A stretch of DNA of 64,000 bases from a virus. This document shows, in pieces, positions 34,227-34,376 of this stretch. The notes beneath the pieces are model-generated. The model did not search any database and was not told where the DNA came from. It was given only the letters and a program-made list of their open reading frames with translations. The stretch lies in IMG/VR virus record IMGVR_UViG_3300003323_001383; one strand, written 5' to 3'. Each line of letters starts with the position of its first letter. The stretch's first letter is position 1. Made by a program: the position numbers and the translations under genes.

Positions 34227-34299
34227 CGCCGCCGGCGGGGATCGAACCCGCAACCGCCCGGTTTAAAGCCGGGAGCTCTGCCTTCTGAGCTTCGGCAGC
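34227..34299 (-). tRNA. tRNA with anticodon loop CUUUAAA, anticodon UUA (ochre-suppressor type)
   Basis: Cloverleaf on the minus strand: acceptor GCUGCCG/CGGCGGC, D-arm GCUC-AGAAGGCA-GAGC, AC stem CCCGG/CCGGG, T-arm GCGGG-UUCGAUC-CCCGC. Confidence 0.55.
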
Positions 34300-34303
34300 G
34301 TTG

Positions 34304-34376
34304 AGGGCCCGGCGGGGCTCGAACCCGCGTAACTCCGGTTTTAAAGACCGGGGCCTGACCTCTAGGCTACGGACCC
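34304..34376 (-). tRNA. second tRNA with anticodon loop CUUUAAA, anticodon UUA (suppressor type)
   Basis: Acceptor GGGUCCG/CGGGCCC, AC stem CCGGU/ACCGG, T-arm GCGGG-UUCGAGC-CCCGC; sequence differs from the first tRNA. Confidence 0.5.

Follow-up and report, generated by a model that had tools for sequence, protein, structure and literature searches.

The stretch of viral DNA analyzed here, 64,000 nucleotides (nt) of IMG/VR record IMGVR_UViG_3300003323_001383 (hereinafter, the window), carries, upstream of a gene for a homologue of the major vault protein (MVP; gene mvp), two genes for transfer RNAs (tRNAs) with the anticodon UUA, that is, tRNAs of the ochre-suppressor type. Comparison with related loci suggests that these genes are probably two functional paralogues of a phage ochre-suppressor family that selection preserves among the huge phages of one MVP-encoding clade with an otherwise standard genetic code.

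The preliminary description of this DNA proposed two minus-strand tRNAs in which U33 and A37 flank the anticodon UUA, and both ARAGORN and Rfam bear this out (Table 1). ARAGORN predicts 12 RNA genes in the window, calls the two genes in question (hereinafter, copies A and B) tRNA-Stop(tta), with a sense anticodon assigned to neither, and finds no tRNA on the plus strand of this locus, in keeping with the orientation originally proposed. Against the Rfam tRNA family RF00005, both copies lie far above the gathering score of 29 (E about 1e-10) and inside the range of the nine sense tRNAs of the window (56-64 bits); neither scores as a pseudogene. The arms are GGGUCCG-UA-GCCU/AGGC (D-arm), CCGGU-CUUUAAA-ACCGG, GCGGG-UUCGAGC-CCCGC and CGGGCCC-U in copy A, and GCUGCCG-AA-GCUC/GAGC (D-arm), CCCGG-CUUUAAA-CCGGG, GCGGG-UUCGAUC-CCCGC and CGGCGGC-G in copy B; the anticodon stems and the T-loops (UUCGAGC and UUCGAUC, respectively) are those originally read from the sequence. 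In both copies, 5-bp anticodon stems enclose the 7-nt loop CUUUAAA, with U33, UUA at positions 34-36 and a purine, A37, next to it, which is the configuration of an ochre suppressor. Both have the short variable region of class I tRNAs, neither encodes CCA, and they are 76% identical to each other. Copies A and B are genuine canonical tRNAs with an ochre-reading anticodon. Their placement "immediately" upstream of mvp holds only approximately: they do lie upstream, with about 250 nt and a 68-codon open reading frame (ORF) between copy B and the mvp start codon (33976).

Relatives of the window were found through homologues of its MVP, the neighborhoods of which were then fetched (loci are denoted by L numbers). 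In every close relative, the corresponding slot 5' of mvp is occupied by tRNA-Stop(tta), which adds six lineages with G+C content (GC) from 66% down to 49%; each has one copy, compared to two in the window, and the tRNA is typically much nearer to mvp than in the window, save where an extra ORF has been inserted. Copy A is 84-86% identical to the single tRNA(UUA) of L008 and L009, and thus is their orthologue, whereas the nearest relative of copy B is the tRNA(UUA) of L034 (84%); therefore, the window contains both sub-lineages of one family. The members of this family are one another's closest relatives, and the UUA lineage is old rather than a recent mutation of a sense tRNA.

To the alignment of the eight tRNA(UUA) sequences (two from the window and one from each of the six relatives), RNAalifold assigns the cloverleaf. 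In this alignment, 99.4% of the cells are paired, and 16 of the 21 stem pairs, counted independently, show double (compensatory) changes. The covariation score is 0.68 compared to 0.21 ± 0.04 for shuffled alignments, none of the 500 shuffles reaches the observed value, and all pairing measures collapse once the partners are slid by 1-3 columns. Assignment to the tRNA family is thus supported by comparison of homologues in addition to the score. The anticodon loop CUUUAA(A/C), in contrast to the changing stems, is invariant across the eight homologues; furthermore, G1-C72 is present in all eight and G73 in seven. Compensatory changes in the stems combined with an unvarying loop imply selection on both the RNA and its anticodon, and therefore provide strong evidence that the fold and the UUA anticodon evolve under purifying selection.

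As to the amino acid carried by these tRNAs, the identity between the family and the sense tRNAs of the comparison sets does not go beyond about 70-76%. With the anticodon loop masked, no isotype wins: the B-type tRNAs (copy B, L034 and L097) are marginally nearest to tRNA-Lys, and the A-type is ambiguous. In a blastn search against 50,697 phage genomes, copy A has no matches, and those of copy B, at 75-84%, are a mixture of tRNAs for Lys, Asn, Thr, His and Met; copy B is weakly Lys/Asn-like. Assignment to Lys by the nearest labelled tRNA was rejected: the U-rich loop common to these tRNAs accounts for much of that signal, as do odd "Lys" genes in which the loop is CCUUUAA or only 6 nt long. 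Thus, of the earlier proposal that the two differing tRNA bodies reflect two identities, the difference stands, as two divergent paralogues from two sub-lineages of a single family, and the two identities are a conjecture. Under the known identity rules, U34-U35 favors LysRS, GlnRS or GluRS, and Lys, Gln or Glu, the amino acids of the enzymes that read these positions, are the likeliest candidates; we regard this as a lead.

It is unlikely that the conserved molecules are tRNA-shaped RNAs that do not decode, such as decoys for host anticodon nucleases or for A-site mRNA toxins with U-rich loops or stop codons as their sites of action, an RNase P signal for the mvp transcript, or the cargo or partner of a vault-like particle, the last being close to the vault-RNA-like role that had been put forward for them. 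The tRNA-Lys loop CUUUUAA is a frequent target of nucleases, and CUUUAA is one base off it; a non-decoding function would also fit the fixed place directly 5' of mvp in seven lineages, apart from the sense-tRNA array, and the lack of a read-through target in the window and the relatives' loci. However, linkage to mvp can be accounted for by synteny alone, and the tRNAs have kept the canonical positions for use by the ribosome and EF-Tu as well as a compensated acceptor stem, none of which a mere signal or decoy needs. Moreover, no tRNA adjoins mvp at 28 more distant mvp loci (L001-L007, L011-L030 and L096), namely, seven from phage or IMG/VR records, 20 from metagenomes (at most 51% identity) and the 463-kb contig L096. 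Hence, tRNA(UUA) does not consistently accompany mvp across mvp-bearing elements, as would an MVP-associated RNA, and is restricted to the clade with at least 56% MVP identity that shares this synteny. The Rfam Vault RNA family RF00006 has no match in the window at its gathering threshold. Given these results and the full set of canonical tRNA features, including the selected anticodon, the vault-RNA-like role finds no support. As an aside, the search for MVP homologues yielded more than 6000 proteins at E of 1e-20 or lower, many on contigs of 100-460 kb, and phage MVPs look widespread.

Another explanation, to which we assign a markedly smaller probability, is that TAA is a sense codon in part of the genome, for example, in a block of late genes outside the window, and that tRNA(UUA) decodes it in the manner of the CUA and UCA suppressors. 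Recoded phages typically encode the matching suppressor tRNA, as is the case here, and recoding limited to late genes is possible (10.1101/2021.08.26.457843); the selected UUA anticodon is conserved clade-wide; and the window covers 64 kb of a 95.6-kb contig that itself probably comes from a much larger genome. The stop codons of the sequenced loci speak against it. Eight genes of the window end in TAA and show a clear coding signature, with GC at third codon positions (GC3) of 0.79-0.97; among these are 333..3287, 29734..29946 and 55300..56178, which had been cited as evidence that TAA is a genuine stop, as indeed it is. The 167 genes called in five relatives' loci end in TGA (90), TAG (47) or TAA (30), and orthologues switch freely among the three: the HD gene of the window ends in TAG, and its orthologues in four genomes end in TAA; that of PTH2 is TAA in three orthologues, TAG in one and TGA in one; and the metallophosphatase gene ends in TAA, TGA or TAG. 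Such interchange has the appearance of neutral drift among equivalent terminators.

In-frame stops were sought as codons with 45 stop-free codons to either side in the true coding frame, defined by GC3 of at least 0.8 and GC1 greater than GC2; this screen replaced an all-frame BLAST with masked (X) stops, the output of which was dominated by off-frame and low-complexity matches because the DNA is GC-rich. In none of the 16 cases (4 TAA, 6 TAG and 6 TGA) from the window, L008, L009, L031, L032 and L034 does a homologue alignment bridge the stop, and the giant, possibly virion, ORFs at 333-14137 run without interruption. Neither programmed TAA read-through nor recoding, both of which had been suggested, nor any interruption of conserved genes by a stop, was found in the 64-kb window and about 119 kb of relatives. 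Hence, of the hallmarks of a TAA-recoded genome, a cognate suppressor tRNA is present, whereas in-frame TAA codons in conserved genes and abandonment of TAA as a terminator are not observed. Likewise, over 10,000 jumbo phages have been surveyed without any TAA-recoded genome being reported (PMC13037316). In the sequence read, that is, the window and the relatives' loci, TAA is not recoded.

Three of the four TAA cases in the screen are a single junction shared by the window (29736), L008 and L009, in which an ORF of 66-70 codons is followed by TAA, exactly 15 nt, and an in-frame receiver-domain gene. The latter has a GTG start without a well-spaced Shine-Dalgarno sequence, and ochre read-through would fuse the two ORFs; this junction was nonetheless rejected as a read-through fusion because the receiver gene has its own start and the junction is broken in L031. 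The junction at 58481 was also rejected given that the small membrane ORF downstream of it comes with an ATG and a GGAGAGGGA ribosome-binding site of its own. A split ECF sigma-factor gene in L032 (8835-9349, plus strand), tried as a case of an in-frame stop, turned out to result from a frameshift at a tandem-duplicated GCCGCCCTGGGCC, not from TAA; the frameshift is either an assembly error or real pseudogenisation.

The least credible alternative, with a probability close to nil, is that the tRNA is decaying or arose by accident, whether as a pseudogene, through an assembly or homopolymer error in a gene for tRNA-Lys, or as a cloverleaf formed by chance. A8 in copy B, U73 in copy A and the many CUUUAA matches in public metagenome-assembled genomes (MAGs) that are tRNA-Lys with a 6-nt loop, perhaps through long-read homopolymer errors, might point that way. 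However, both copies score on par with the neighboring sense tRNAs (59-62 bits), clean 7-nt loops are closed by perfect 5-bp stems, and seven assemblies made independently (JGI, NCBI and Logan) yield eight genes with the same anticodon and compensatory stem changes. Covariation across the lineages effectively excludes all three.

Pattern scans of larger databases yielded no further member of the family. In IMG/VR, 60 matches included three tRNA(UUA) calls by ARAGORN, two of the same type and all low-GC; among the 120 GTDB matches listed, there were two canonical UUA tRNAs, neither homologous to the clade. Canonical-loop tRNA(UUA) calls in bacterial MAG contigs come from a Myxococcales MAG with 71% GC (L204, 7112-7184, minus strand) and a Pirellulales MAG (L182, 5129-5198, minus strand); the former has an anticodon arm much like that of copy A, an atypical D-arm, and no nearby protein homology to the phage clade. 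Several cellular genomes (L108, L117, and also L139, L153, L169 and L190) encode tRNAs that ARAGORN assigns to Lys(ttt) and that have a CCUUUAA loop, in which C33 takes the place of U33. Two of these, from Halorubrum tibetense (L108, 6553-6626, minus strand) and Halogranum rubrum (L117, 2949-3022, minus strand), are about 80% identical to copy A, including a GGGCCCG acceptor stem and U73, a likeness that could reflect kinship or GC-rich convergence. Many MAG tRNA-Lys genes (L107, L155, L171, L202, L206, L207, L213 and others) have the 6-nt loop CUUUAA and are reported by ARAGORN as "?(Lys|Stop)". Several come from MFD-labelled MAGs, and we suspect that they are T-homopolymer deletions in long-read assemblies rather than biology; such genes are a trap in surveys of suppressor tRNAs.

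The two tRNA(UUA) genes share a conserved block with a phage transfer-messenger RNA (tmRNA) and with genes for two peptidyl-tRNA hydrolases of the archaeal/eukaryotic type (PTH2), an RRM_1 protein and an HD-domain protein, which suggests a module for translation quality control or ribosome rescue. The tmRNA gene lies about 5 kb from tRNA(UUA) in all seven lineages; the tags encoded in the clade are ANDNSIAAAA, ANDNNTVQALAA, ANDNAQLAAA, ANDNAFAAAA and ANDNATAPAALAA. Most bacterial tmRNA tags end in UAA. The tag reading frame of this clade ends in UGA in 7 of the 7 lineages, including the phage with 49% GC. The linkage of tRNA(UUA), tmRNA and PTH2 is one inherited synteny block and counts as a single observation. 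A functional connection of tRNA(UUA) with the linked tmRNA and both PTH2 genes may exist, and the combination of a suppressor with a rescue module is mechanistically coherent: according to the account of Ueda et al. 2002 given in PMC3985003, read-through by suppressor tRNAs feeds non-stop ribosomes to SsrA tagging.

We propose the following course of events. The tRNAs would be transcribed within the string of sigma-factor, PTH2, metallophosphatase and mvp genes, excised by RNase P and 3' processing, completed by the CCA-adding enzyme, and charged by an aminoacyl-tRNA synthetase of the host or one encoded in an unseen part of the phage genome. At UAA and, via U34 wobble, probably also at UAG, charged tRNA(UUA) would be in competition with RF1 and RF2, causing partial read-through at sub-stoichiometric efficiency rather than a change of the code. 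Ribosomes reaching the 3' ends of messages would be dealt with by the phage's own tmRNA and its two PTH2 enzymes, and UGA, the sole stop that the UUA anticodon cannot read and the one that ends the linked tmRNA tag, would be untouched. Putative targets are phage genes beyond the window or host messages terminated by UAA. Ochre suppressors of the classical kind owe their weakness to competition with both release factors; suppression of this strength should therefore be tolerable for a phage in which 10-18% of the stops are TAA.

A bolder version, which we consider quite unlikely, is that tRNA(UUA), the tmRNA with the UGA-terminated tag and the two PTH2 enzymes form one conserved module that deliberately interferes with termination at UAA and UAG. 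Such a module could drive ribosomes on host UAA-terminated messages into the 3' ends, with the products tagged and destroyed, which would amount to host shut-off by termination sabotage; alternatively, occupancy of the A-site at stop codons could blunt RelE-type abortive-infection toxins; or else, the clade could be at the first step of the capture of TAA as a sense codon, with recoded genes elsewhere in the genome. If the codon-capture variant is true, the ochre codon would here have been reassigned in a phage for the first time.

Several observations count against a functional suppressor family in these phages. No conserved read-through target was found in the 64-kb window and about 119 kb of relatives, and the only TAA junction common to relatives is TGA and out of frame in L031, which carries the tRNA. 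TAA shows no depletion among the stops, with a share of about 18% in the relatives, and the phage itself would pay a price for efficient suppression. Only marginally closer back-up stops follow TAA and TAG than TGA: the median distances to the next in-frame stop are 24.5, 18 and 36.5 codons for TAA, TAG and TGA, respectively, and the difference (p = 0.036 for TAA and TAG taken together against TGA) is confounded by gene overlaps. The UGA stops of the tmRNA tags share ancestry, so that 7 of 7 does not represent seven independent events. Finally, copy B carries A8 in place of the usual U8, and U73 of copy A is an odd discriminator, given G73 in six of the other seven members of the family.

The genomic context of the two genes is a co-directional string that consists of a sigma-factor gene, PTH2, a 110-codon ORF, the metallophosphatase gene, copy A after 6 nt, copy B after a further 3 nt, the 68-codon ORF and mvp (Table 1). 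The metallophosphatase gene is the conserved 5' neighbor of the tRNA slot (synteny in L008, L009, L031, L034 and L097), and mvp is the conserved 3' neighbor; a scan predicted no sigma-70-type promoter or intrinsic terminator around the tRNA(UUA) genes. In L008, a lower-GC ORF of 160 codons (9389-9871, plus strand) is inserted between tRNA(UUA) and mvp; it contains, as judged by eye, Cys/His motifs of the HNH type and resembles a homing-endonuclease insertion beside a tRNA gene. The AAA ATPase gene of L031 (482-3976) contains an intein with a LAGLIDADG domain.

Table 1. Features of the window and of the related loci discussed in the text
Feature	Coordinates	Strand	Remarks
tRNA(UUA) copy A	34303-34376	-	ARAGORN tRNA-Stop(tta); Rfam RF00005 59.0 bits
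tRNA(UUA) copy B	34225-34299	-	ARAGORN tRNA-Stop(tta); Rfam RF00005 62.1 bits over 34227-34299
Calcineurin-like metallophosphatase	34383-35189	-	Pfam PF00149; TGA stop 6 nt before copy A
68-codon ORF between copy B and mvp	34006-34212	-	No Pfam match; missing from relatives
MVP homologue, 877 amino acids, full-length	31343-33976	-	Pfam MVP_shoulder and Vault_3
PTH2 peptidyl-tRNA hydrolase, copy 1	35480-35803	-	Pfam PF01981; stop TAA
PTH2 peptidyl-tRNA hydrolase, copy 2	25455-25844	-	Pfam PF01981, 90.8 bits
RRM_1 RNA-binding protein	26390-26755	-	
HD-domain protein	24529-25440 (approximate)	-	
Phage tmRNA	28971-29318	-	Tag ANDNSIAAAA; ARAGORN; Rfam 85.1 bits
Short ORF ending in TAA	29734-29946	-	Upstream part of the shared junction
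Receiver-domain gene	29332-29718	-	Downstream part of the shared junction
Shared junction in L008	13903-14493		
Shared junction in L009	5361-5963		
tmRNA of L008	14523-14870		MVP identity 81%; one tRNA(UUA)
tmRNA of L009	5977-6323		MVP identity 78%; one tRNA(UUA)
tmRNA of L031	14498-14872		MVP identity 65%; one tRNA(UUA)
tmRNA of L032	13828-14196		MVP identity 63% (L032/L033); one tRNA(UUA)
tmRNA of L034	14750-15114		MVP identity 61% (L034/L035); one tRNA(UUA)
tmRNA of L097	13852-14201		MVP identity 56%; GC 48.6%; one tRNA(UUA)

The window, with 68% GC overall and 64-72% along its length, is a fragment of a high-GC huge phage because, among phage records, the most similar MVPs are those of the "huge phages" LR756500 and LR756501 (462 kb and 735 kb; 39-44% identity). 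A cluster representative identical to the MVP of the window is encoded on a 95.6-kb JGI contig. Megablast of 12 kb of the window against 50,697 phage records returned no matches. Pfam identifies a family-A DNA polymerase (PolA), a DnaB-like helicase, an SNF2 helicase, an AAA ATPase, a Dam methylase, two receiver domains, ECF-type sigma factors and an HNH nuclease; a GIY-YIG nuclease and a dCTP deaminase are encoded as well. Ten large window ORFs were compared with PHROGs, and three giant ORFs (984-1555 amino acids) show at most a weak match to tail proteins. Among 40 window proteins searched with Pfam, there is no release factor, SmpB or aminoacyl-tRNA synthetase. The nine sense tRNAs (Tyr-GTA, Lys-TTT, Lys-CTT, Gln-CTG, Asp, Asn, Met, Trp and Met) form an array at 60675-63391 on the plus strand, separated from the tRNA(UUA) genes by 26 kb. 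This array is enriched in readers of A/T-rich codons, as is typical of phages that differ from a GC-rich host in codon usage.

Suppressor tRNAs of phages are usually taken as markers of recoding, and only TAG and TGA recoding is known in phages. Here, a UAA-reading tRNA is retained by selection across a diverse clade of huge phages (49-68% GC) that still terminate at TAA; therefore, recoding does not follow from the presence of a suppressor tRNA, which, for annotation pipelines, is insufficient ground on its own to switch the genetic code. The seven lineages are a testable set for the questions of what a virus gains from partial ochre suppression and whether the suppressor cooperates with rescue by tmRNA and PTH2. 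If tRNA(UUA) is charged orthogonally, it may be of interest to engineers of the genetic code, efficient natural decoders of UAA being scarce.

Phage-encoded suppressor tRNAs as such are of a known kind: amber and opal suppressors occur in recoded phages and amber suppressors in the standard-code phage XacN1. The preprint of Borges et al. (10.1101/2021.08.26.457843) includes a table of predicted TAA suppressors, and no case of ochre recoding in a phage has been reported (PMC13037316). The literature searched contains no ochre-type tRNA family shown by covariation to be conserved across a clade of huge phages, no such ochre-suppressor clade that demonstrably retains TAA as a stop, and no phage suppressor tRNA fixed beside mvp and tmRNA instead of in a tRNA array.

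Compared to the eukaryotic vault RNA (RF00006), also a small RNA genetically or physically associated with the major vault protein, the RNA described here is a canonical tRNA without a match in sequence or structure, and most phage mvp loci lack such a neighbor. The ochre suppressors of Escherichia coli are derived from tRNA-Lys UUU (supG/supL), tRNA-Gln UUG (supB) and tRNA-Tyr (supC). They share with tRNA(UUA) the UUA anticodon in a normal 7-nt loop with U33 and A37 and the expected weak reading of UAA and, by wobble, UAG; however, they are laboratory point mutants of sense tRNAs, whereas the phage tRNA(UUA) is a natural, old viral lineage, conserved across a clade and without a close sense parent. 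The recoded phages, such as Lak, crAss-like phages and others (10.1101/2021.08.26.457843), similarly combine stop-reading phage tRNAs with large genomes rich in translation genes, but theirs are CUA for TAG and UCA for TGA, accompanied by many in-frame TAG or TGA codons. In contrast, the tRNA(UUA) clade has ochre specificity and keeps TAA as a normal terminator, with no in-frame TAA found. A precedent is XacN1, a jumbo phage of Xanthomonas, which is a high-GC host. This phage has the standard code and two CUA suppressor tRNAs for which in-silico read-through gave no target, so that here, too, suppressor tRNAs come without recoding or known targets (PMC5852040). The suppressors of XacN1 are amber and reside inside a big tRNA array in the terminal repeats, whereas those of the present clade are ochre, lie beside mvp and tmRNA apart from the array, and are conserved, as backed by covariation, in seven lineages.

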